From: Mollicutes bacterium
Lineage (GTDB): Bacteria; Bacillota_I; Bacilli_A; RF39; UBA660
Assembly (NCBI GenBank): GCA_012520435.1
Contig: JAAYOI010000007.1
Location: forward strand, 964-64,963
DNA: 64,000 nt
Direction: 5' to 3'
Shown: positions 6,101 through 44,392 of the stretch, piece by piece
How the letters are laid out: every line of letters begins with the position of its first letter
Position numbering within the stretch: position 1 is the first letter of the stretch
Notes under the pieces: model-generated
Database searches by the model: none
Seen by the model: the letters and a program-made list of their open reading frames with translations, nothing else
Told to the model about the DNA's origin: nothing
Program-made: the position numbers and the translations under genes

Positions 6101-6517
6101 ATGTGTTATCTAAAAGGAAATTATCATTTAGGAGAATTTTTATATTCTCAACCAACCTATAAAGATAATGAACAAAAGGTTAAAGATGAATCTGATTTAG
6201 TAATTTTAAAAGTTTTATCAGATAAAAAACCAAAATTAGAAGAATTTATTAAGAATCCTAAATTCACATGTAATTTAAGTAGATATATTTATTTAATGCA
6301 ATTACTTGTAATAAATATTAAAAAAAATAGTGAACAAATTGAAATAAAAGATTTAGATACATTTGATGAACTTTTAATTTCCAAAATGAGTGAAGAAGAT
6401 AAAGAAATGCTAGAAATTTCACGTTTAAGATATAATAAAAATAATGAAAAGGATAGTTATTTATCAATATTAAAAGGTAATAGTTTATCAAATTTAGAAA
6501 GAAAAAAATTAAAATAA
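6101..6517 (+). CDS. hypothetical protein (138 aa)
   Basis: ORF only; no recognisable motif. Followed by a terminator hairpin at 6551-6581. Confidence 0.35.
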   Translation: MCYLKGNYHLGEFLYSQPTYKDNEQKVKDESDLVILKVLSDKKPKLEEFIKNPKFTCNLSRYIYLMQLLVINIKKNSEQIEIKDLDTFDELLISKMSEEDKEMLEISRLRYNKNNEKDSYLSILKGNSLSNLERKKLK

Positions 6518-6550
6518 TTTATAATAATGAATTAATTTTAAATAGAATAA

Positions 6551-6581
6551 AACTAAATAGTATTATTTAGTTTTTTTTGTT
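6551..6581 (+). terminator. intrinsic terminator upstream of clpC
   Basis: aactaaata-gtat-tatttagtt followed by eight T. Confidence 0.5.
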
Positions 6582-6640
6582 GATTAAAAAACTAAATTTA
6601 TTCACAATATAAACATAGAATAAAAATAGGGAGGAATAAT

Positions 6641-8968
6641 ATGTTTGGTAATTTTACCGAAGAAGCAAGAAAAATATTAGTTGATGCGAAAAAAGAAATG
6701 TATGATTTAAAACATCCTTATGTTGGTAGTGAACATTTATTATTAGCTATCTTAAAAAATGATAATAATATATCTAAAAAATTAAAAGATTATAATTTAG
6801 ATTATCAAACATTAAAAAATGAAATAATTAAAATAATTGGAGTTGGAACTAATTCAAATAATTGGTTTTTATATACACCTTTATTAAAAAGAATTTTAGA
6901 AAATGCGATTATTGATAGTAAAGAAAATAACAATGGGGAAGTTACTGTTGAACACCTTTTTTCTAGTTTATTAGAAGAAGGAGAAGGTGTCGCAATTCGT
7001 ATAATGTTAGGCATAAATATTGATGTTGATGAACTTTATGGTGAATTTTCATATAAATTAAATAATACGAATAAAAGAAAAAAGAATAAAAAATTATTAA
7101 TTGAAGAATTAGGAATCGATCTTAATCAAAAAGCATTAAATAATGAAATAGATCCAGTTGTTGGTAGAGAAAAAGAAATAAGAAGAATCTTAGAAATTTT
7201 ATCAAGAAGAACTAAAAATAATCCTTTATTAATAGGAGAAGCAGGGGTAGGGAAAACGGCCATTGTTGAGGAATTAAGTAGATTAATTGTTAATGGGGAA
7301 GTACCACTTCCTTTACGTAATAAAAGAATTATTTGTTTAGATATGGCAACCATGGTAGCGGGAACTAAATATCGTGGGGAATTTGAAGAACGTGTTAATA
7401 AAGTATTAAAAGAAATTGAAGAAAATGATGATATTATTCTTTTTATTGATGAAATTCATACTTTAGTAGGAGCGGGTGGGGCAGAAGGAGCGATTGATGC
7501 ATCGAATATCTTTAAACCAGCTTTAGCTAGAAATAAACTTAGATGTATTGGGGCAACCACTATTGATGAATATAAAAAATATATTGAAAATGATCGTGCT
7601 TTAGAAAGAAGATTTCAAAAAGTTATGATCGATATTCCTGATAAAAAAACAGTTAAACAAATTTTAAATAAATTAAAAGAGATATATGAGAAATATCATT
7701 ATGTTCATCTTAGTGATAAAATAATTGATCTTATTATCGATTTATCAGAAAAATATGTTTATGATCGTAATCAACCTGATAAAGCTATTGATATTTTAGA
7801 TGAAGTTTGTGCCAAAGTAAGTTTAAAAGAAAGCCATACTTTAAAACGTTATAATAATTTAAATAAAGAATTACAAGAAATTATAAAAAAGAAAAATGAA
7901 GCTATTATTAATAATGATTTTGATAAGGCATCAGAATATAAAGAAAAAGAAAATGCTTTAATGAATGAAATAAATAATTTAGAATTAGGTCTTTATAATG
8001 ATAATATTAAAGAAGTGACAATTGAAGATGTGGCTGAAGTAGTTAGTATTAAAACGAAAATACCTGTTTATGAATTATTAAATGATCAAGAAAAAATTAT
8101 TAAGGTCATGGAAGAAAATATTAGTTCTAAAATAGTTGGGCAAGAAGAAGCGGTATCAGAAGTTATTAATATTGCTAAAAGGATAAAATTAGGTTTTAAA
8201 GATGAGAGTAAATGTTATTCAATTATGTTTTGTGGACCAACGGGCGTTGGTAAAACTGAACTTGCCAAAATTTTTGGTAATAATTTAGTAGGGGAAACTA
8301 ATGTTATTAAACTTGATATGAGTGAATATGTAGAAAGTCATTCGGTTAGTAAAATAATAGGAGCTCCTCCTGGTTATGTAGGATATAGTGATCAAAAAAA
8401 TTTATTAGAAGAAATACGTAATAAACCATATTCCGTAGTTATTTTAGATGAAATCGAAAAAGCTCATGATAGTGTTATTAATCTTTTCTTTCAAATTTTA
8501 GATGAAGGTAAAATAAAGGATTCATCAGGTAAAATTATTAGATTTGATAATGTTGTTATTGTTATGACATCTAATATTGGTTTTGAAAAAAATAATTTAG
8601 GATTTAATAAACCAACTAATGATGATATAATTACTAAACTTAAAGATTATTTTCAATTACCATTTATTAATCGGATTGATAATATTGTTGTTTTTAATAG
8701 ATTAACAGAAGAAAATATTCATACATTAATATTAAAGAAAATAAAAAAATTAAAAGAAAAATATCAAAAGAAAGATATTAAATTTAAAATTAGTAATAAT
8801 GTAATTAAAGAAATAATTAAAGAATCTAATTATGAAGAATTTGGAGCTCGCAAAATAGATAAAGTAATTAAACAAAAAGTAGAAAATATTATTATTGAAA
8901 AAATTATGGATAATGTGAAAAATATTAATATAAAAACAATTAAAAAAGAATCTATTTTAAATATTTAA
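6641..8968 (+). CDS. clpC: ATP-dependent Clp protease ATP-binding subunit ClpC (Clp_N, D1, UVR-like linker, D2)
   Basis: Clp_N repeats (SEHLLLAIL / VEHLFSSLL). D1 Walker A GEAGVGKTAIVE. D2 Walker A GPTGVGKTELAK, with IGAPPGYVGY and sensor-2 GAR. RBS GGGAGGA upstream. Confidence 0.85.
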   Translation: MFGNFTEEARKILVDAKKEMYDLKHPYVGSEHLLLAILKNDNNISKKLKDYNLDYQTLKNEIIKIIGVGTNSNNWFLYTPLLKRILENAIIDSKENNNGEVTVEHLFSSLLEEGEGVAIRIMLGINIDVDELYGEFSYKLNNTNKRKKNKKLLIEELGIDLNQKALNNEIDPVVGREKEIRRILEILSRRTKNNPLLIGEAGVGKTAIVEELSRLIVNGEVPLPLRNKRIICLDMATMVAGTKYRGEFEERVNKVLKEIEENDDIILFIDEIHTLVGAGGAEGAIDASNIFKPALARNKLRCIGATTIDEYKKYIENDRALERRFQKVMIDIPDKKTVKQILNKLKEIYEKYHYVHLSDKIIDLIIDLSEKYVYDRNQPDKAIDILDEVCAKVSLKESHTLKRYNNLNKELQEIIKKKNEAIINNDFDKASEYKEKENALMNEINNLELGLYNDNIKEVTIEDVAEVVSIKTKIPVYELLNDQEKIIKVMEENISSKIVGQEEAVSEVINIAKRIKLGFKDESKCYSIMFCGPTGVGKTELAKIFGNNLVGETNVIKLDMSEYVESHSVSKIIGAPPGYVGYSDQKNLLEEIRNKPYSVVILDEIEKAHDSVINLFFQILDEGKIKDSSGKIIRFDNVVIVMTSNIGFEKNNLGFNKPTNDDIITKLKDYFQLPFINRIDNIVVFNRLTEENIHTLILKKIKKLKEKYQKKDIKFKISNNVIKEIIKESNYEEFGARKIDKVIKQKVENIIIEKIMDNVKNINIKTIKKESILNI

Positions 8969-33750: not shown

Positions 33751-34458
33751 TTAGCTATTATTTTTGTTTTTAATAAATTCCCTTAATATTTTAGTTAGAG
33801 CTCTTTTTTCAATTCTTGATACATAACTTCTTGATATTCCTAATTGTTCGGCAATTTCTTTTTGAGTTATTTCTTCATGTCCATCTAAACCATATCTTTT
33901 ACAAATGATTTCTTTTTCACGATCAGTTAAAACATTAAAATATTGTTTTAGTAAAGAAATATTATTTTGTTTATGAAGATCCATCGCAAAATCAGGTTTA
34001 GGTGTTTTTAAAATATCTAAAAAGGTTATTTCGTTACCATCTTTATCAAACCCAATTGATTCGGTAATACTAATATTTTTACTATTTTTTTTATCACCTC
34101 TAAAATACATAAGGATTTCATTTTCAATACATCTTGCACAATAAGTAGTTATTTTCGTTCCATGTTTATAAGAATAACTATCAACTCCTTTAATAAGACC
34201 AATCGTTCCAATACTAATTAAATCATCAATATCTTCTTTTTTATGATTATATTTTTTAACAATATGAGCAACTAATCTTAAATTGTGTTCAATTAATTTA
34301 TTACGTGCCTCCTTATCACCTAATTTAGATCTCCTTATACATTCTTCTTCTTCTTCTTTAGATAAAGGATCAGGAAAAACATTATTAGAGTAAGCAGCAG
34401 TAAAGATATAAAAATCTTTAAATATTTTTTTAATCAGTTTCCATAGCATCAAAATCAC
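33751..34458 (-). CDS. sigK: sporulation sigma factor SigK (pro-sigma-K, uninterrupted)
   Basis: The pro-sequence/region 2 NNVFPDPLSKEEEEEC...NKLIEHNLRLVAHIVKKY...DLISIGTIGLIKGVDSY...YCARCIENEILMYFR and the C-terminal ISRSYVSRIEKRALTKI are near-identical in pattern to B. subtilis SigK (NNAFPQPLSSSEEKKY...NMLIEHNLRLVAHIVKKF...ISRSYVSRIEKRALMKM). Confidence 0.82.
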   Translation of the reverse strand: MILMLWKLIKKIFKDFYIFTAAYSNNVFPDPLSKEEEEECIRRSKLGDKEARNKLIEHNLRLVAHIVKKYNHKKEDIDDLISIGTIGLIKGVDSYSYKHGTKITTYCARCIENEILMYFRGDKKNSKNISITESIGFDKDGNEITFLDILKTPKPDFAMDLHKQNNISLLKQYFNVLTDREKEIICKRYGLDGHEEITQKEIAEQLGISRSYVSRIEKRALTKILREFIKNKNNS

Positions 34459-34522: not shown

Positions 34523-34531
34523 TGGTATAAT
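34523..34531 (+). promoter_or_regulatory. extended -10 promoter element for the AAA+ gene
   Basis: TGGTATAAT located 21 nt upstream of the ATG at 34552. Confidence 0.4.
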
Positions 34532-34551
34532 ATTTTTTAGGGGGAATGGTT

Positions 34552-36438
34552 ATGGAGATTAATGAGAAAAAAACCCATGAATTATCAGAAATATCAAACA
34601 TAGATTTAGAATTTTTAGAATTTTATTTAGAAGAAAATAATTTGAATGTTAATAAAATTATTGAAAATTTAAAAAGTTTAAATTTTAATAAAGATATAAT
34701 TCCTATTTTATTTTTTCACGATTATAATTTAACATTTAATCCATTCATTTATTTAATAATGGAAATGAAAAATTCCATTAAAAATATGTATAATAACTTT
34801 AAATATTTTGAAAAGTATAATTTACAAAAAGATATTCTTAGATTTTATTATGGAATAGTGCACTTAGTTAAAAGAAATCCTGATGTTCCCAAAAAAATAG
34901 GGGCAAGGATACTTAAAAAATTTGATACCAATCTAGCAAAATATATTGAAAAAGATAAAGTGGGACAATCAGATGAAATAAAATGGCTTATTAAACACTT
35001 AACTAATATTTTAAAATTTAATCATAATGGGGAATTAATTAATGATTGTTGGCAATTTGATTATATTCGTAAAATGCTAAATATTGCTTATATGCGAATA
35101 TTTTTGGAAATAGCTAATGTTGATGAAGAAACTTTTGAAATCTTATCTCATTTAGAATTACGTTTACTTTCAGATTCTACTTATGAAGATGATGATACCT
35201 TTTTTATTAATGTGAATTTATATGATGGAATTGTTTTTGATAAAATATTGGAAATGTTTTTTGATGATTTTGAAAGTAATGAAGATGTTATATATGATTT
35301 ATTTGAACAATTTATTGAAAAAGTAGAAGATAATTTTCTTTTTAATGATTTAGATAAAAAAGAAGAAAAAAATAAAAAAGAAAAGGAAGAAAAAGAAAAC
35401 AAAGAAAGTGAAAACAAAGAAAGTGAAAACAAAGAAAAAGTGATCAACAAAAATACATTATCATATTTAAATTTAGAAAAACTTCTCAAAGAAAAAATTA
35501 TAGGTCAAGATAACGTTATTGAGAAATTAGTTGAAAGAATAAAGATTGCTAATTTTGGAGTAAGTAAAGAAGTTGGCGCGAAAGCAGTCTTTTTGTTGGC
35601 AGGACCAACCGGGATTGGTAAAACTGAAATAGTTAAATTAATTAGTCAAAATATTGGTGATAATTCAAATAATAAAACAAAGAGTAATTTGATTAGACTT
35701 GATATGAGTGAATATAAAGAATCACATACTGGTAGTAAAATAATAGGAGCGCCTCCAGGATATGTTGGATATGATGATTTGGAAGATAATACTGTTTTTG
35801 ATAAAATAAGAAGAAATCCTAATGCCATTATATTATTAGATGAAATTGAAAAAGCTCATCCAGAAGTTTTAGATATTTTTCTTCATATTTTTGATGAAGG
35901 AAAAGCAATGACTAATAAACAAAAAGAAGTTGATTTTAGGAATAATATCTTTTTTATGACAACTAATATTGGATCTTTTGAAGCAAGTAAAAATGCAATT
36001 GGTTTTGATAATAATAGAGATAAAAATTTAGATAAATTAGGAACTTATAAAAAAGCTTTAGAAAAATATTTAAGACCAGAATTTATTAATCGGATTGATG
36101 AGATTATAATTTTTAATAGTTTAACCAAAGAAAATGTCGCAACAATTATTAATAATCAAATAAGCAATCTTGAAAAAATAATAAAAGAAGAAAAGCAGAT
36201 GAATATTGGAATAAAGATATCTAATGAAGCTTTAGAATATTTGATTAATAAAAGTGATTATAGCAGATATGGTGCTCGTGAAATTCGTCGTATAATTGAA
36301 ACCCATGTATTAAAACCTATTATTAATAATTTAAGTAATGGCATTAATCTTAATAATAGAAATTTACATATTGACTATGTAGAAAATGGATTAGATTATC
36401 GATTTGAAAAAATTAAAATATTAACGAAAGAAATGTAA
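34552..36438 (+). CDS. single-ring ClpB-D2-type AAA+ ATPase with an unknown ~300-aa N-terminal domain and a K/E-rich linker
   Basis: The C-terminal half carries only a Clp D2 module (GPTGIGKTEIVKLIS; LIRLDMSEYKESHTGSKIIGAPPGYVGYDD; ILLDEIEKAHPEVLDIFLHIFDEGK; sensor-2 GAREIRR). There is no Clp_N, D1 or middle domain. The N-terminal 300 aa have no recognisable motif. Start set at the second ATG, 7 nt after GGGGG. Confidence 0.6.
   Translation: MEINEKKTHELSEISNIDLEFLEFYLEENNLNVNKIIENLKSLNFNKDIIPILFFHDYNLTFNPFIYLIMEMKNSIKNMYNNFKYFEKYNLQKDILRFYYGIVHLVKRNPDVPKKIGARILKKFDTNLAKYIEKDKVGQSDEIKWLIKHLTNILKFNHNGELINDCWQFDYIRKMLNIAYMRIFLEIANVDEETFEILSHLELRLLSDSTYEDDDTFFINVNLYDGIVFDKILEMFFDDFESNEDVIYDLFEQFIEKVEDNFLFNDLDKKEEKNKKEKEEKENKESENKESENKEKVINKNTLSYLNLEKLLKEKIIGQDNVIEKLVERIKIANFGVSKEVGAKAVFLLAGPTGIGKTEIVKLISQNIGDNSNNKTKSNLIRLDMSEYKESHTGSKIIGAPPGYVGYDDLEDNTVFDKIRRNPNAIILLDEIEKAHPEVLDIFLHIFDEGKAMTNKQKEVDFRNNIFFMTTNIGSFEASKNAIGFDNNRDKNLDKLGTYKKALEKYLRPEFINRIDEIIIFNSLTKENVATIINNQISNLEKIIKEEKQMNIGIKISNEALEYLINKSDYSRYGAREIRRIIETHVLKPIINNLSNGINLNNRNLHIDYVENGLDYRFEKIKILTKEM
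35389..35445 (+). repeat. tandem 15-nt repeat (aaagaaagtgaaaac x2 plus degenerate copies) encoding a KESENKESEN K/E-rich linker
   Basis: Direct repeats are visible inside the AAA+ gene. They explain the spurious low-complexity minus-strand ORF 35181-35489. Confidence 0.5.
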
Positions 36439-36496: not shown

Positions 36497-38215
36497 GTGA
36501 TATTAATGAGAAAGAATATATTTAATAAAATAGTGATTTTAGGTATTTTGATATTTCTTTTTGGTTTATATTTATTACTAAGCGAAAATTTTAATATTGA
36601 AAATTTTGATCAAACAATTGGTAGTAAACAATTTAATGTTCTAAAATGGTCAAAAAGTATAGGAACAAGTAAATATAAAGTTATTATTAAAAATAATAAT
36701 AAAATTATAAAAGAAATAATAACTCCTAATCATGAACTTATTCTTGATGATTTAAATCTTACTTCTAATTCTTTTACGGTTGATGTTATTGCCTATCACA
36801 AACTAAAAAGACAAGTTAAACGTTCTAAAACTTTTAATTGGAATTTACCACTCATTCAACTTAATAAAGAGGAAATACCGGTATTAAGTAAAAGCGATAT
36901 TACCGATGTTACAATTAATTTAATAAATAATGCTAATCAAGATAATTATATAATTGTTTCAAAAGAAGGGAAGGATTTAAAACATTTAAATATTGAAGAA
37001 AATAAAATAAGTGCCTCATTTTTTAAAGATTTAGATGATTATTTAGGAACTTATGAAATTATGTTATGTCAAGATTATAATGATAAAAAAATAATCTTAC
37101 ATAAAACATATCTTAATATCATACCTAAACCCATTACTGATATTGTTATCAATCAACCATTAAATAATAGTGAAGTTTCTTTAGATGATTTAATTATTAA
37201 TTTTAGTGGTGGAAAATATGCTGATAAATATTATTATAGTTTACAGGATCAAGATGGAAAAATAATAATTGATAAAGCTTTAATTGATTCTCAACAATTT
37301 ATAATTTCTAAAGATTATTTAAATCCAGAAGAAAAGTATACTTTAATTATTACAGGTCAACATTTTTTAGATAATAATGTAACCAAATCTGTTAAACTAA
37401 ATTTTAAAGTAGCGCCTCTTAATAAAGTTAGTCAAATTATTAGTACTAAACCAAGTGGGGAAATTGGTAAAAATAGAGCAGTTAGACTTTTAACTTATAC
37501 AAATGATGCCCAAATTTATTATACCCTTGATGGAAGTATACCAACTAAAAATAGTATTGAATATAAGGGATCAATTTTTATTGATCGAGATGTAACATTA
37601 AAAGCGATTGCAGTAAAAGAAGGTATGATTGATAGTGATATTTTAGAACTCCAATTTAAAGCAGTTGAAAAAGAACCAGTTATATATTTAAGTCCTTCCA
37701 TTCAAAATGAAAATTATGGTGTAAAAAAGGCTGGATATACAACCGAAAGAGAAATGATGAACAAAATAAGTGATTATATTGAAGAACGTTTAAAACAAAA
37801 AAAGATAATTGTTTATCGCAATCATCCTGATATGACTTTGTCAGAGATTGTCAATGAATCGTCAAAATATGATGTAGATTTACACCTGGCTATTCATTCT
37901 AATAAATTTAATGGTAAGGTTTCAGGTGTAGAAACTTGGATTCATGAATATGAAGTAGGCAAAGCTTATGAAATTGCTAGTTTGATTCAAAAGGCATTAA
38001 TGCAAATTTATTATAATCCAAAAGGAAATCGTGGTATTAAATATAATAATGAAATAGATGAAATGCGTGAGACAAGTCCTAAGAATGTTACGAATGGAGT
38101 ATTAGTAGAAATCGCTTTTCATGATCATTATAAAGATGCCAAATGGATAGTTGATAATCAAAAGAAAATAGGTTATGCGATTGCTGATGCGGTAGCAAGT
38201 TATTTTGGGAGATAG
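36497..38215 (+). CDS. membrane-anchored cell-wall hydrolase: Fn3-associated/chitobiase-C-like domain plus Amidase_3-like (MurNAc-L-Ala amidase) C-terminal domain
   Basis: N-terminal TM segment. AQIYYTLDGSIPTKNSIEYKGSIFIDRDVTLKAIAVKEG is a typical Fn3-associated motif. The C-terminal region (DVDLHLAIHSNKFNGKVSGVETWIH, preceded by IYLSPSIQNEN in place of the usual xDxGHGG) resembles the Amidase_3 family with an atypical first motif. Confidence 0.45.
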   Translation: MILMRKNIFNKIVILGILIFLFGLYLLLSENFNIENFDQTIGSKQFNVLKWSKSIGTSKYKVIIKNNNKIIKEIITPNHELILDDLNLTSNSFTVDVIAYHKLKRQVKRSKTFNWNLPLIQLNKEEIPVLSKSDITDVTINLINNANQDNYIIVSKEGKDLKHLNIEENKISASFFKDLDDYLGTYEIMLCQDYNDKKIILHKTYLNIIPKPITDIVINQPLNNSEVSLDDLIINFSGGKYADKYYYSLQDQDGKIIIDKALIDSQQFIISKDYLNPEEKYTLIITGQHFLDNNVTKSVKLNFKVAPLNKVSQIISTKPSGEIGKNRAVRLLTYTNDAQIYYTLDGSIPTKNSIEYKGSIFIDRDVTLKAIAVKEGMIDSDILELQFKAVEKEPVIYLSPSIQNENYGVKKAGYTTEREMMNKISDYIEERLKQKKIIVYRNHPDMTLSEIVNESSKYDVDLHLAIHSNKFNGKVSGVETWIHEYEVGKAYEIASLIQKALMQIYYNPKGNRGIKYNNEIDEMRETSPKNVTNGVLVEIAFHDHYKDAKWIVDNQKKIGYAIADAVASYFGR

Positions 38216-38296: not shown

Positions 38297-38620
38297 ATGA
38301 ACACACAATTTAAGAAAGGGGTATTAGAATTAATTGTTTTGGTATCCGTTTATAAAAAAGATATGTATGGATACGAATTAATAGAAGAAGTATCTAAAGT
38401 AGTTGATGTTAATGATGGAACTATATATCCCTTGTTAAAAAGATTAACCTTAGAAAAATATTTTGAAACATATTTAGTTGAATCAAATGAAGGACCATCA
38501 CGCAAATATTATCGTATTACAGATTTAGGTAAGAAAAGAATGAAAGAATTAATGGATATATGGGTCTCTTTCGCAAGTTCTGTTAATAAATTTATAGAGG
38601 AGAGTGAAAAAAGTGAATAA
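38297..38620 (+). CDS. PadR-family transcriptional regulator
   Basis: LELIVLVSVYKKDMYGYELIEEVSK...GTIYPLLKRLTLEKYFETY...SRKYYRITDLGKKRMKEL shows the classic PadR winged helix. Confidence 0.82.
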   Translation: MNTQFKKGVLELIVLVSVYKKDMYGYELIEEVSKVVDVNDGTIYPLLKRLTLEKYFETYLVESNEGPSRKYYRITDLGKKRMKELMDIWVSFASSVNKFIEESEKSE

Positions 38621-39968
38621 GAAAAAATTTTTAGAAGAATTAGAAAAACGTTTAATTATTTTAGATGAAACGGAAAAACAAGATATATTAAATGAATATA
38701 AAGATATAATTAATGAAAAAGTAAAGCATGGGAAAACCGAAGAAGAAGCAATTGCTGATTTTGGAAGTATTGATGAATTAGTAAAAGAAATTCTTGGTGC
38801 ATATAAAATTAATCCAGATTATCTTAAAAATAAACAAACAAATTCAGAAAAAGCTAAAGAAATTATCAATAATAGTGAAGATTTAATTAAAACAGGAGCT
38901 AAAAAATTAGCTGATTTTACACGTAATATTATTAATGATATAAAACAATCAGATATTACTGTTGAAACAATTTTTGAAATAATTATTAAAGCAGTTTTGT
39001 TATTATTTGGCTTTGTGATATTAAGAATACCTTTTTGGATTATTGAAGGTTTAGGGTTGGAAATTTTGGATATGATTTTTTATCCATTTGATAAAATACT
39101 AGTTTTTATTTGGTCAGTAATTATAGGTGTGCTTTATCTTACAACATGTATTATTATTGCCTTCTTAGTTTTTAAAAGATATTTTTATTCTAATTCTAAA
39201 CCAAAAGATAATATTTCTGAAATAAAGAAAGAAAAGATAAATATAAAAGACCAAGTTGAAAAAAAACAAAATAAAAATAATAATAATTCAACTATTATGA
39301 TTATTCTTAAAGTAATTTTAGTTTGCTTTTTTCTCATTCCTTTATTTTTATCTAATTTTGGATTAACTATTGCTTTAGTAGTTTTAGGATTCTTATTATA
39401 TAAAGGGTTAAATGTTATTAGTTTAATAATTGTTTTACTTGGTTTAATTACTATTTTTGGATGTATAGGTTCATTTATTAATAATATTTTACGCAATCGT
39501 ATAAAATTTAATTTTATTTCTTTAATAATTGGTATTGCTTTATTTGTAACAGGTTGTTTATTAGTGGTTGATAGTGCTATTAAGATTGATTATTATAATG
39601 ATATACCACATTATTCTTATGTACCTAAAACCATTGTTTATAATGAAGAAATTGATGAAAAAACTTATATTTATGGTAATGATGAAATTGAAATAGTTAT
39701 TGATAATACATTAGAAGATGGCAAAATAGATATTGAGGTTACTTATTATGATGATTTTATTGCCATAAATAAAAGAAATCACACTGAGAAAAGAAATGAT
39801 GATATTTATATTACTACGAGATTACGTAATAATAGTATAGGAAAATTATTAGATATTATGGTTGCTAAATTAAAAGAAAATAAAATTTATAATTATGGTT
39901 ATTTCTTTAAACCAGAAATTAGAGTGTTTGCTAATGAAAAGACTATTAATTTGATTAAAGAGGGGTAG
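38604..39968 (+). CDS. DUF1700 (PadR-associated) membrane protein with C-terminal extracytoplasmic domain
   Basis: The N-terminus FLEELEKRLIILDETEKQDILNEYKDIINEKVKHGKTEEEAIADFGSIDELVKEILGAY fits DUF1700. Several TM helices. Overlaps the PadR stop and is translationally coupled. Confidence 0.6.
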   Translation: MKKVNKKKFLEELEKRLIILDETEKQDILNEYKDIINEKVKHGKTEEEAIADFGSIDELVKEILGAYKINPDYLKNKQTNSEKAKEIINNSEDLIKTGAKKLADFTRNIINDIKQSDITVETIFEIIIKAVLLLFGFVILRIPFWIIEGLGLEILDMIFYPFDKILVFIWSVIIGVLYLTTCIIIAFLVFKRYFYSNSKPKDNISEIKKEKINIKDQVEKKQNKNNNNSTIMIILKVILVCFFLIPLFLSNFGLTIALVVLGFLLYKGLNVISLIIVLLGLITIFGCIGSFINNILRNRIKFNFISLIIGIALFVTGCLLVVDSAIKIDYYNDIPHYSYVPKTIVYNEEIDEKTYIYGNDEIEIVIDNTLEDGKIDIEVTYYDDFIAINKRNHTEKRNDDIYITTRLRNNSIGKLLDIMVAKLKENKIYNYGYFFKPEIRVFANEKTINLIKEG

Positions 39969-41740: not shown

Positions 41741-43291
41741 ATGAAAAAATATTATCTTTTTTTATTTTTGTTTTTCTTTTTAATTAGTAATGTTAAAGCA
41801 GAAACTTATTATTCTCCATATACCGATTTTAGTGAATGGACTACTACTTATGTAAAAGAAGATGATATTACGATTGTTGAAGGTGAAAGAAGATATAAAT
41901 GGTATAAAGAAGGAAAAATATTAGGAGATTATTATATTGAAGGAGAAAATAATCCTAATTTTCCTTTAATTGATTATGAAGATTTTATTGTAACTTCTTT
42001 TTCAGAATGGAGTAAGACAAAACCAGAAGAAAAGTTAAATCGGCTTATTAATGAAAGAACATTATACGAATATCAAGATATGAAAGAAGTTCGTTATATT
42101 CATTTAAGTAATTTACAAGGTAGTTATGGATCATTGCGAATAAGTGAAATTGAGGTATATGTTGATAATAATAAAATATCTTATAGTTATTATTGTGAAG
42201 GATGTAATTCTGATTTTAAAGATCATATTAACAATGGTAAAACGATTGAAAATATGTCTTATATTAATAATAATGGTTATCTTCGAATTGATTTAAATAA
42301 TTATTATTCAATTGATCGTATTAATCTTAAGTTATATCTTTTTGATGTGGGAACTACTACCAAAAAATATGATATTAAAATTACTAGAGAAAAAAATTTA
42401 AATAGTACTAGTTATTTAGAAAAGAAAGTTTCACTTAATTTTTCTTGTGAAAAATTAAGTGAGATAATTCCTTTTACTTATAATTATTTAAATATGAATA
42501 TTACTAATCTTGAATGGTATGAGAAAAAAGAATCTTTAGATTATATTGAATCAACACCCACAAGAAAAGTTAATCCAATAAAAGAATATCAATATCAAGA
42601 TAAATTATATCGTTATTATAAATTAGAAAAAGAATATTCTAATGATTATTATAAAGAAGAACCTGTTAATTATCCTAAAAAAGATGAAAATATGTATCAA
42701 GATTATTATCGTTATAAAAAACGTGATAAAGTTGTTATTCAAGATGAACTATTAATTACTGATTATGATATTACTTTATGGGATTTTATTATTAGTAGTA
42801 CAACTAATAATATTCAAATAGAAAGTAATCTTGATATTAATAAAAATGGTGTTTATAAAGTTAAATATATTTTACCTTTTGAAACTATTATTAAGAATGT
42901 TGAAGTTAATATTCCTGATAATAATTTAGATAATCAATTAGATAAATTAAATCAAGAAATAAAAAACTTAAAAGAAGATAATTTAAATCTTTTAGAAACT
43001 ATTAAAATAAAGGATCAAAAAATAAAAGAATTAGAAAATAATAATCAAGTAAATAAGCAAACAAATAAAAAAAATAAAACATCTTTACAAGAATATCAAG
43101 ATAAAACAAATAATCAAAATAATAAATTAGAAGAAATATTAAATAAGAATCAGTTATTAGAGAATGATAATATGAAATTAAGTACTAAAAAATCATCATT
43201 TATTGATAATGATATGGTATTAACTAGTTTATTTATTTTTTTAATTTGTTATTTAATCATTTTAATAATTAAGAAAAAAAAGTCGATTTAA
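41741..43291 (+). CDS. secreted Tyr-rich surface protein with C-terminal coiled coil and TM anchor
   Basis: Signal peptide (LISNVKA/ETYY). Tyr-rich globular region. An N/K/Q-rich coiled coil (about 410-480). C-terminal hydrophobic anchor followed by KKKKS. Confidence 0.45.
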   Translation: MKKYYLFLFLFFFLISNVKAETYYSPYTDFSEWTTTYVKEDDITIVEGERRYKWYKEGKILGDYYIEGENNPNFPLIDYEDFIVTSFSEWSKTKPEEKLNRLINERTLYEYQDMKEVRYIHLSNLQGSYGSLRISEIEVYVDNNKISYSYYCEGCNSDFKDHINNGKTIENMSYINNNGYLRIDLNNYYSIDRINLKLYLFDVGTTTKKYDIKITREKNLNSTSYLEKKVSLNFSCEKLSEIIPFTYNYLNMNITNLEWYEKKESLDYIESTPTRKVNPIKEYQYQDKLYRYYKLEKEYSNDYYKEEPVNYPKKDENMYQDYYRYKKRDKVVIQDELLITDYDITLWDFIISSTTNNIQIESNLDINKNGVYKVKYILPFETIIKNVEVNIPDNNLDNQLDKLNQEIKNLKEDNLNLLETIKIKDQKIKELENNNQVNKQTNKKNKTSLQEYQDKTNNQNNKLEEILNKNQLLENDNMKLSTKKSSFIDNDMVLTSLFIFLICYLIILIIKKKKSI

Positions 43292-43366: not shown

Positions 43367-43714
43367 ATGTTAGAAATTACAACTGAGTTTCGTAAAGGTG
43401 TTTTGTTTGTTCGTTTAAGTGGTGAACTCACCAAACAAACAGTAGATAAATTAAATAAAGAAGTAACATCTTTAATTAAAGATAATGGGATTAGAAATAT
43501 TGTTTTTAATATCAAAGATTTAAATATGATTGATATTAAAGGTATTAATGCTTTACTTTATAATTATGAATTATCTAAAGCTAATAATGGTAAAGTATGT
43601 GTTTGTGGAATTAAAAATCCACTAGTAAGTCAACGTATTAGAAATAGTCGATTATTAAAATATATGTATGAATCTAGTGATGAGTTAGGGGCTTTTAATA
43701 TCATTAATTTATAA
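43367..43714 (+). CDS. spoIIAA: STAS-domain anti-sigma-factor antagonist (SpoIIAA-like) lacking the phosphorylatable serine
   Basis: 115 aa. Aligns to B. subtilis SpoIIAA (LCIRLTGEL / IRHIVLNLEDLSFMDSSGLG versus LFVRLSGEL / IRNIVFNIKDLNMIDIKGIN). The Ser58 position is Lys here. Confidence 0.65.
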   Translation: MLEITTEFRKGVLFVRLSGELTKQTVDKLNKEVTSLIKDNGIRNIVFNIKDLNMIDIKGINALLYNYELSKANNGKVCVCGIKNPLVSQRIRNSRLLKYMYESSDELGAFNIINL

Positions 43715-43723
43715 GGTGATAAT

Positions 43724-44392
43724 ATGGTACAAGAACTTAATGATATTATTTTAGAAAACCAAAATTTAATTTATTCTTTAACGCATTATTTTGAAGGATA
43801 TCATAGTAAAGAAGATTTATTTCAAGTAGGAGTAATTGGGCTTATTAAAGCCTATAAAAAATATAATAATCATATGGATGTTAAATTTACTACTTATGCT
43901 TATCCTTTTATTTTAGGAGAAATGCGTAAATATGTAAGAGAAGATAAAGGTATTAAAATAAGTCGTGATATTATTAAACTTAATTTAAAAATCGAAAAAG
44001 CTAGTATTCTTTTATCACAAAAATTGATGCGTGAACCAACGATTAAAGAACTTGCCCATTATCTTGAAATTCCTGAAGAATCAATTGTTGAAGCTAAAAA
44101 AACAATTAATGTTTTACAAAGTTTAGATGAACCAATAAATAGTAAAGATGGTAAAGAAATGAGTTTACATGAAACAATAAGTAATATTAATAATATGGAT
44201 TTAACTAGTTTAATTCAATTAAAAGATGAACTTAATAATTTAACACCTTTTGAAAAAAGTCTTATTCAAGCTAGATATATAAATGATTTAACGCAACAAG
44301 AAACAGCTGAATTTTTAGGTATAAGTCAAGTCCAAGTATCAAGAAAAGAACAAAAAGTAATAACTAAACTTCGAAACAAACTATTGAATTAG
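43724..44392 (+). CDS. sigF: sporulation sigma factor of the SigF/SigG/SigB group (SigF by context)
   Basis: DLFQVGVIGLIKAYKKY, YAYPFILGEMRKYVRED and LGISQVQVSRKEQK match SigF regions 2 and 4 (DLFQIGCIGLLKSVDKF; LGISQVQVSRLEKK). Located 10 nt after spoIIAA and followed by spoVA genes, as in the B. subtilis spoIIA-spoVA neighbourhood. Confidence 0.7.
   Translation: MVQELNDIILENQNLIYSLTHYFEGYHSKEDLFQVGVIGLIKAYKKYNNHMDVKFTTYAYPFILGEMRKYVREDKGIKISRDIIKLNLKIEKASILLSQKLMREPTIKELAHYLEIPEESIVEAKKTINVLQSLDEPINSKDGKEMSLHETISNINNMDLTSLIQLKDELNNLTPFEKSLIQARYINDLTQQETAEFLGISQVQVSRKEQKVITKLRNKLLN

Follow-up and report, generated by a model that had tools for sequence, protein, structure and literature searches.

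The locus examined here, a stretch of 64,000 nucleotides from a Mollicutes bacterium (contig JAAYOI010000007.1 of assembly GCA_012520435.1; hereafter the window), raises the question of what a Clp-type ATPase may do when much of its usual architecture has been exchanged for a domain of no recognized family. The Clp unfoldases usually listed for Bacillota are ClpC, ClpE, ClpL, ClpB, ClpX and ClpY. The 628-residue product of the gene at 34,552 has neither the D1 plus D2 pair nor the Clp_N repeat domain of class I Hsp100 proteins (ClpA/ClpB/ClpC/ClpE/ClpL). The protein is better described as a single-ring unfoldase of ClpC origin that bears a ClpP loop and has an orphan N-terminal domain (N-domain); it is rare and uncharacterized and is probably a new specialized protease partner. 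The reading favored here, with a probability of roughly 0.55, is that of a single-ring, ClpP-coupled unfoldase of ClpC-type D2 descent, whose N-domain selects substrates or adaptors.

An entire Clp D2 AAA+ module makes up the C-terminal half of the protein (residues ~306-600; residue numbers throughout follow the 630-codon frame that opens at ATG 34546), in which two Pfam families exceed their gathering scores, namely AAA_2 at residues 346-520 (E 1e-44, 152.9 bits, cut-off 27) and ClpB_D2-small at residues 526-600 (E 8e-13, 48.7 bits, cut-off 21.9). The NCBIfam models of ClpA (262 bits, cut-off 993), ClpB (247 bits, cut-off 1232) and ClpV align by their D2 parts only and score 215-262 bits, where the cut-offs are 885-1232, and the Pfam and NCBIfam searches found no Clp_N, D1 or middle domain (M-domain) in the protein, only a single AAA module. 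Both the stand-alone D2 module and the absence of these other domains had been proposed in an initial annotation made from the sequence alone, and both are borne out, as are the Walker A motif GPTGIGKT, the Walker B motif LLDEIE and the GAREIRR motif. However, its placement of IGAPPGYVGY in the arginine-finger region does not hold, as by the established ClpB/ClpC assignments GAPPGYVGY is the D2 pore-1 loop, the R of FINRID the arginine finger and the R of GAR sensor-2. Walker A and B, sensor-1, the arginine finger, sensor-2 and the GYVG pore loop are all intact, and invariant in 15 members of the family described below. The best match of the D2 in the PDB is the D2 of Bacillus subtilis ClpC (HMMER, E 1e-59), and its identity to the D2 of the window's own ClpC is 38%.

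Judged by its sequence, the D2 is of the ClpC/ClpA type and not of the ClpB type, because it carries a ClpP-docking loop. The HMMER alignment places AIGFDN of the query against YVGFNV of B. subtilis ClpC, in which the VGF tip of the P-loop docks ClpC onto ClpP, while ClpX uses IGF likewise (bioRxiv 10.1101/2022.09.15.508104). In a MAFFT alignment, [I/M/V]-G-F occupies the ClpP-docking position in every family member, LGF is found there in the window's own ClpC and IGF in ClpC- and ClpA-labelled matches, and the tripeptide has no counterpart in four ClpB-labelled sequences. Altogether, the motif is carried by all 17 family members (17/17) and by 19 of the 104 two-ring matches, the other 85 being without it. 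G486 and F487, like all the ATPase motifs, are invariant among sequences of 35-100% identity, and the flanks of the loop are variable. As residues 483-493 have a predicted local distance difference test score (pLDDT) below 50 in a full-length AlphaFold2 (AF2) model, the loop is probably flexible. The mark of ClpP-partner unfoldases (ClpX, ClpA, ClpC, ClpE), a surface loop past sensor-1 with the tripeptide [L/I/V/M]-G-[F/L], is present, and the segment is a putative docking loop. Hence the GYVG pore loop and the (I/M/V)GF loop, whose presence had been left as a question, are both found and invariant, and the earlier label of a ‘ClpB-D2-type’ protein stands as to the D2-type module and falls as to ClpB, since the docking tripeptide makes the module ClpC/ClpA-type.

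The N-terminal half is of a different kind. Residues 1-300 gave zero Pfam or PADLOC matches, permissive thresholds included, and the N-domain has no relative in Pfam, nor by fold in the PDB or BFVD, in agreement with the earlier view of an unrecognized domain fused to a D2. An AF2 model derived from 15 family N-domains (mean pLDDT 85, predicted template modelling score (pTM) 0.86) consists of 14 helices and no strands. Because the domain is wholly helical, it cannot be a degraded RecA-like D1. An origin from a diverged or rearranged Clp_N+D1, named by the initial annotation as the outcome that would overturn its proposal, was rejected on the all-alpha model and the lack of similarity to the N and D1 regions of the window's ClpC. 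The N-domain has diverged faster than the D2 (20-50% identity versus roughly 50-70%), and its family-invariant residues are N65 (within an N-P-F motif), Y101, G103, D127, N154 and E204. A profile hidden Markov model of the N-domain searched against 1.84 billion cluster representatives returned four clusters of 576-623 aa, all with the same architecture. The N-domain is thus conserved as a fold and confined to the D2-fused architecture.

The two halves are joined by a K/E-rich linker encoded by 15-nt tandem repeats, as had been described earlier, for which Tandem Repeats Finder gives a period of 15, 4.1 copies and 88% matches. The linker is disordered in the full-length AF2 model, which has a pTM of 0.48, and the N-domain is therefore flexibly tethered. 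Both the length and the sequence of the linker vary among family members. Two relatives from other samples that are 99% identical, P0002 and P0003, have 623 aa each, as compared with 628 aa here. P0002 has exactly one ESENK unit fewer, and P0003 is known by its length (623 aa) only; the one-unit difference in P0002 means that the linker repeat is polymorphic in copy number, which suggests that the variation in linker length is driven by slippage.

The family defined by this architecture is small. In a search of 5.8 billion proteins, P0001-P0017 alone cover more than 90% of the query, and the remaining matches are two-ring ClpB/ClpC/ClpA proteins aligned to its C-terminal half. The family comprises about 19 clusters, all from metagenome-assembled genomes (MAGs) of uncultured low-GC Bacilli, and the protein is accordingly neither widespread nor already characterized, the second outcome that would have overturned the earlier proposal. 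N-domain patterns built from a five-sequence alignment, which fit the main subfamily only, detected five loci in four MAGs among 185,579 species-representative genomes, the carriers being labelled ‘Bacilli bacterium’ in addition to bins named Muribaculaceae and Ignavibacteriales. The carriers of loci L007 and L009 bear the latter two labels despite Bacilli-like content (sigK and PadR-HAAS synteny), and are probably mis-binned or mislabelled. The copies L006 and L008 in a single MAG (JAQUFI01) were considered as paralogs and rejected as such, as they are two halves of one syntenic slot, lie at contig ends and differ in coverage; they are probably co-binned strains or species. Metagenomes of soda lakes, among others, are the source of a divergent subfamily (P0015-17 and P0121/122; 35-38% identity), and PheS places its hosts no more finely than uncultured ‘Bacilli bacterium’ MAGs.

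As in ClpC (B. subtilis ClpC/MecB, PDB 3j3t), the D2 is homologous over its full length, with shared Walker, sensor and pore motifs; a [V/L/I]GF ClpP-docking loop lies at the same position, and a rough tree makes the host ClpC the sister of the family. Unlike ClpC, the protein has no Clp_N, D1 or M-domain, their place being taken by the orphan helical domain with its charged linker, and it would form one ring. Clp_N, D1 and the M-domain hold the MecA/McsB adaptor binding sites and are the main regulatory elements of ClpC. The resemblance to ClpX lies in its working logic, in which a lone AAA+ ring has a ClpP-docking loop of the IGF type and an accessory domain at the N-terminus for recognizing substrates or adaptors, whereas the module itself belongs to another AAA+ clade, being a ClpA/B/C-type D2, and there is no zinc-binding domain (no zf-C4_ClpX match); the NCBIfam ClpX model reaches 37 bits against a cut-off of 359, through the C-terminal small domain only. 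It is proposed that, in a ClpC-type D2 ancestor, Clp_N, D1 and the M-domain were replaced by a lineage-specific all-helical domain on a flexible charged linker. The protein would assemble as a hexamer with a single D2 ring, threading substrates via the GYVG pore and passing them to ClpP via the IGF loops, in the manner of ClpX or the D2 of ClpC, while the orphan N-domain would act as a substrate- or adaptor-recognition platform and so provide the protease with a set of clients of its own. Transcription would be driven by a housekeeping sigmaA-type promoter, and the protein would not be restricted to sporulation.

Should this be true, a class I Hsp100 protein would be reducible to a ClpX-like single ring that has been re-targeted through domain replacement, and the family would offer a compact natural model of how a lone D2 ring assembles, grips substrates and drives ClpP. 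The N-domain would, moreover, represent a new orphan fold. The practical impact is limited, because the family is tiny and comes from metagenome-assembled genomes only. A bolder version, in which the protein represents an unrecognized Clp class confined to a clade of very AT-rich, spore-forming, uncultured Bacilli, namely a single-ring ClpP activator with a de novo or orphan helical recognition domain and with dedicated clients, possibly regulators from its conserved neighborhood (pro-sigmaK or the PadR-HAAS pair), is tentative.

Several points weigh against the favored reading. The most serious is that tblastn with a B. subtilis ClpP query detected no clpP, either in the window or in the fetched loci of ~3-22 kb each, and a ClpP of this genome is therefore inferred only from the LGF loop that its own ClpC carries. 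That the D2 alone would hexamerize and bind ClpP is predicted from sequence, and the presumed role of the N-domain comes from its position and from analogy with the zinc-binding domain of ClpX, the N and M-domains of ClpC and the ankyrin domain of human Skd3. The rough neighbor-joining (NJ) tree of D2 segments, in which the family is monophyletic (17/17) with the window's own ClpC and P0060 as its sister, has no support values and was drawn from a biased sample of matches. Finally, the promoter was assigned by its agreement with a consensus, in a genome of 25% GC (25.3% in the window).

In the main rival, the protein is a ClpP-independent, stand-alone unfoldase or disaggregase resembling human CLPB/Skd3, in which the helical N-domain would bind clients and the single D2 ring would remodel or solubilize them with no degradation involved. 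Skd3 likewise combines a helical interaction domain with one Hsp100 D2 nucleotide-binding domain, its structures are matched at ~1e-40, no clpP was seen nearby, and ClpC itself can be a ClpP-independent disaggregase (10.1101/2022.09.15.508104). However, Skd3, a mitochondrial disaggregase with an ankyrin domain, is not a partner of ClpP, whereas the 628-aa protein has the docking P-loop; if ClpP docking were not under selection, an invariant [I/M/V]-G-F amid drifting flanks would be difficult to account for, and ClpB-type sequences are without the motif. In addition, neither Pfam nor fold searches revealed an ankyrin match in the N-domain, and no other known client-binding domain was found. This rival is judged unlikely, although less so than the others.

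Considerably less probable is the role that the initial annotation had suggested, in which a chaperone, or an unfoldase fused to an adaptor, serves sporulation specifically, in the mother cell or the spore, and is linked in function to sigK and the neighboring cell-wall amidase. The observations behind it are confirmed within the window, where the gene is divergent from sigK, an Amidase_3/CHB_HEX_C protein (Pfam) is encoded downstream, and YqfD, SpoVB-like, SpoIIAA, SigF-like and SpoVAC/AD/AEB genes are present, many sporulation genes being found in the host. The gene is also divergent from sigK in L001/L002, L003 and L006, and spoIIAA-sigF-spoVA lies nearby in both the window and L011. However, the adjacency follows the overall synteny (ileS/sigK ... 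PadR-HAAS) rather than marking a functional pair. The window, L001/L002, L003 and L006+L008, all of the main subfamily, keep the order sigK(-) / gene(+) ... PadR-HAAS, interrupted by variable insertions (DUF2935, three HGD-D/BcrAD genes, the amidase and small open reading frames (ORFs)). The adjacency to sigK is found only in the closer relatives L001, L003 and L006 and is missing in L011, L012 and L004/L010/L014. At L011, a PBP5-like gene lies upstream, and spoIIAA-sigF-spoVA follows downstream past two unannotated genes. At L012/L013 the gene is flanked by pyk and polC, and at L004/L010/L014 it lies between a stretch running from leuS to a metallo-beta-lactamase-fold gene and an rnf cluster; L004/L010 have a two-component response regulator/histidine kinase pair on the metallo-beta-lactamase-fold gene side, and in L014 an acetyltransferase and one unannotated gene separate the gene from the rnf cluster. 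No sporulation gene was seen over about 13-18 kb in L004/L010/L014 or L012/L013, the amidase is three genes distant in L001 and absent from L003/L008, and no partner gene is conserved across the compared loci. The sigK adjacency thus behaves as inherited synteny and not as a functional pair, the linkage holding in the main subfamily and failing in L004/L010/L012/L014.

The promoter points in the same direction. The ORF (frame 34546/34552..36438, + strand) comprises 630 codons from ATG 34546, but the start is placed at the second ATG, 34552, because of the spacing to the GGGGG Shine-Dalgarno sequence 7 nt upstream; the 34552..36438 product is identical to NCBI NLL44139.1 (628 aa), and the start proposed earlier is upheld. 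A sigmaA-type promoter is found upstream of the gene in 7 of 8 loci. At the position equivalent to that in the window, TGATATAAT (TGnTATAAT) is present in L001, L003 and L011, and TTTACA-N17-TATTAT/TAGTAT in L004, L010 and L014. TGNTATAAT occurs 20 times in 128 kb (the window, both strands), mostly directly 5' of housekeeping genes, including uvrA, the rRNA methyltransferase gene rlmN and a pyruvate:ferredoxin oxidoreductase gene. A generic promoter scan, with 43 sites versus 41 expected in the AT-rich window, was uninformative. As the promoter is conserved and of the same type as those of the window's housekeeping genes, it argues, at the level of consensus, for transcription that is sigmaA-type and not sporulation-specific, being sigmaA-like rather than SigE/K/F/G-like. 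With sigK adjacency lost in the divergent members, the amidase inconsistent and the promoter of this type, the mother-cell or spore-specific role is not borne out; no specific tie to sporulation was found, and the sporulation reading is weak.

Two further explanations have very little to recommend them. That the protein is an anti-phage defence component of the Dodola/PDC-M37 kind is highly improbable: it is a single AAA_2-type ATPase like DolB and PDC-M37B, which PADLOC matches at 4e-24 and 2e-28, respectively (E 1e-24 to 1e-28), and Dodola contains a ClpB-domain ATPase (PMC11514479), but the matches extend over no more than the common AAA core (~64-298 of the 375-390 profile positions) and reach 98 bits versus 262 bits for true Clp D2 models, none of the eight flanking genes (0/8) matches a partner model, the flanks contain no defence gene or defence island, and the housekeeping synteny is conserved, with vertical inheritance, no mobile-element context and neighbors that vary among orthologs. 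The D2-small domain and the docking P-loop point instead to a true Clp lineage. Equally remote is an ordinary ClpC paralog, truncated and in decay, with a degenerate and functionless Clp_N+D1 as its N-terminal half; in the rough NJ tree the host ClpC is indeed the nearest to the D2, but the N-domain is confidently all-alpha with no beta-strands and no ATPase P-loop, is unlike the N and D1 regions of the window's ClpC and keeps invariant residues over deep divergence, and every ATPase motif is intact.

Table 1. Coordinates of the gene, its control and protein features, and two context genes in the window
Feature	Position	Strand	Remark
Putative sigmaA extended -10 promoter, TGGTATAAT	34523..34531	+	8 nt upstream of the ribosome-binding site
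Ribosome-binding site GGGGG	34540..34544	+	7 nt upstream of ATG 34552
Coding sequence, 628 aa	34552..36438	+	orphan N-domain, linker and one ClpC-type D2 AAA+ module
Orphan all-alpha N-domain	34552..35316	+	~260 residues, 14 helices (AF2)
Flexible K/E-rich linker (EKVEDNF...KEKVINKNTL)	35317..35460	+	residues 258-305, pLDDT <50
15-nt tandem repeat AAAGAAAGTGAAAAC, encoding KESEN	35387..35451	+	copy-number polymorphic
D2 large AAA+ subdomain (Pfam AAA_2)	35461..36105	+	
Walker A GPTGIGKT	35602..35625	+	family-invariant
Pore-1 loop GYVG (substrate-gripping Tyr)	35758..35769	+	G405, Y406, G408 family-invariant
Walker B IILLDEI	35827..35847	+	D432, E433 family-invariant
I-G-F tripeptide at flexible-loop tip, putative ClpP-docking P-loop	35998..36006	+	aligned to ClpC VGF
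Arginine finger R516 in FINRID	36091..36093	+	by homology to ClpB/ClpC D2
D2-small subdomain (Pfam ClpB_D2-small)	36121..36345	+	sensor-2 GAR at 36271-36279
Canonical two-ring ClpC, same genome (context)	6641..8968	+	775 aa, LGF loop
sigK, divergent neighbor (context only)	33751..34458	-	NCBIfam NF004471, 305 bits, cut-off 252

The ClpC of the window (6101-8968 with its upstream region) is not preceded by ctsR-mcsA-mcsB; upstream lies a 138-aa ORF that has no NCBIfam match. A search of the window for CtsR operators gave chance-level matches, none of them upstream of the single-ring gene. At 43367-44392 of the window, spoIIAA, which encodes a STAS anti-anti-sigma factor, is followed after 9 nt by a gene for a 222-aa SigF-like sigma factor (193 bits, under the SigF equivalog cut-off of 321), with no gene for the anti-sigma kinase SpoIIAB between the two. 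The canonical operon is spoIIAA-spoIIAB-sigF. The arrangement of spoIIAA and a SigF-like gene without spoIIAB is also present at L011 (14083-15104).

The amidase downstream of the gene (window 36497-38215, 572 aa) combines a CHB_HEX_C_1/Fn3_assoc module with a C-terminal Amidase_3 domain; its long N-terminal region has no family match, and it is matched weakly as CwlD-like (29 bits, cut-off 222). Throughout the main subfamily, the gene is followed downstream by a PadR regulator, overlapped by a membrane protein of ~455 aa that spans the membrane several times and has a HAAS domain at its N-terminus (window 38297-39968; L001 14851-16567; L003 10439-12140; L008 2256-3948). Directly 5' of spoIIAA, window positions 41741-43291 encode a protein of 516 aa, secreted or anchored and without a PADLOC match, which has a signal-like N-terminal segment, a coiled-coil/asparagine-rich region and a C-terminal transmembrane helix.

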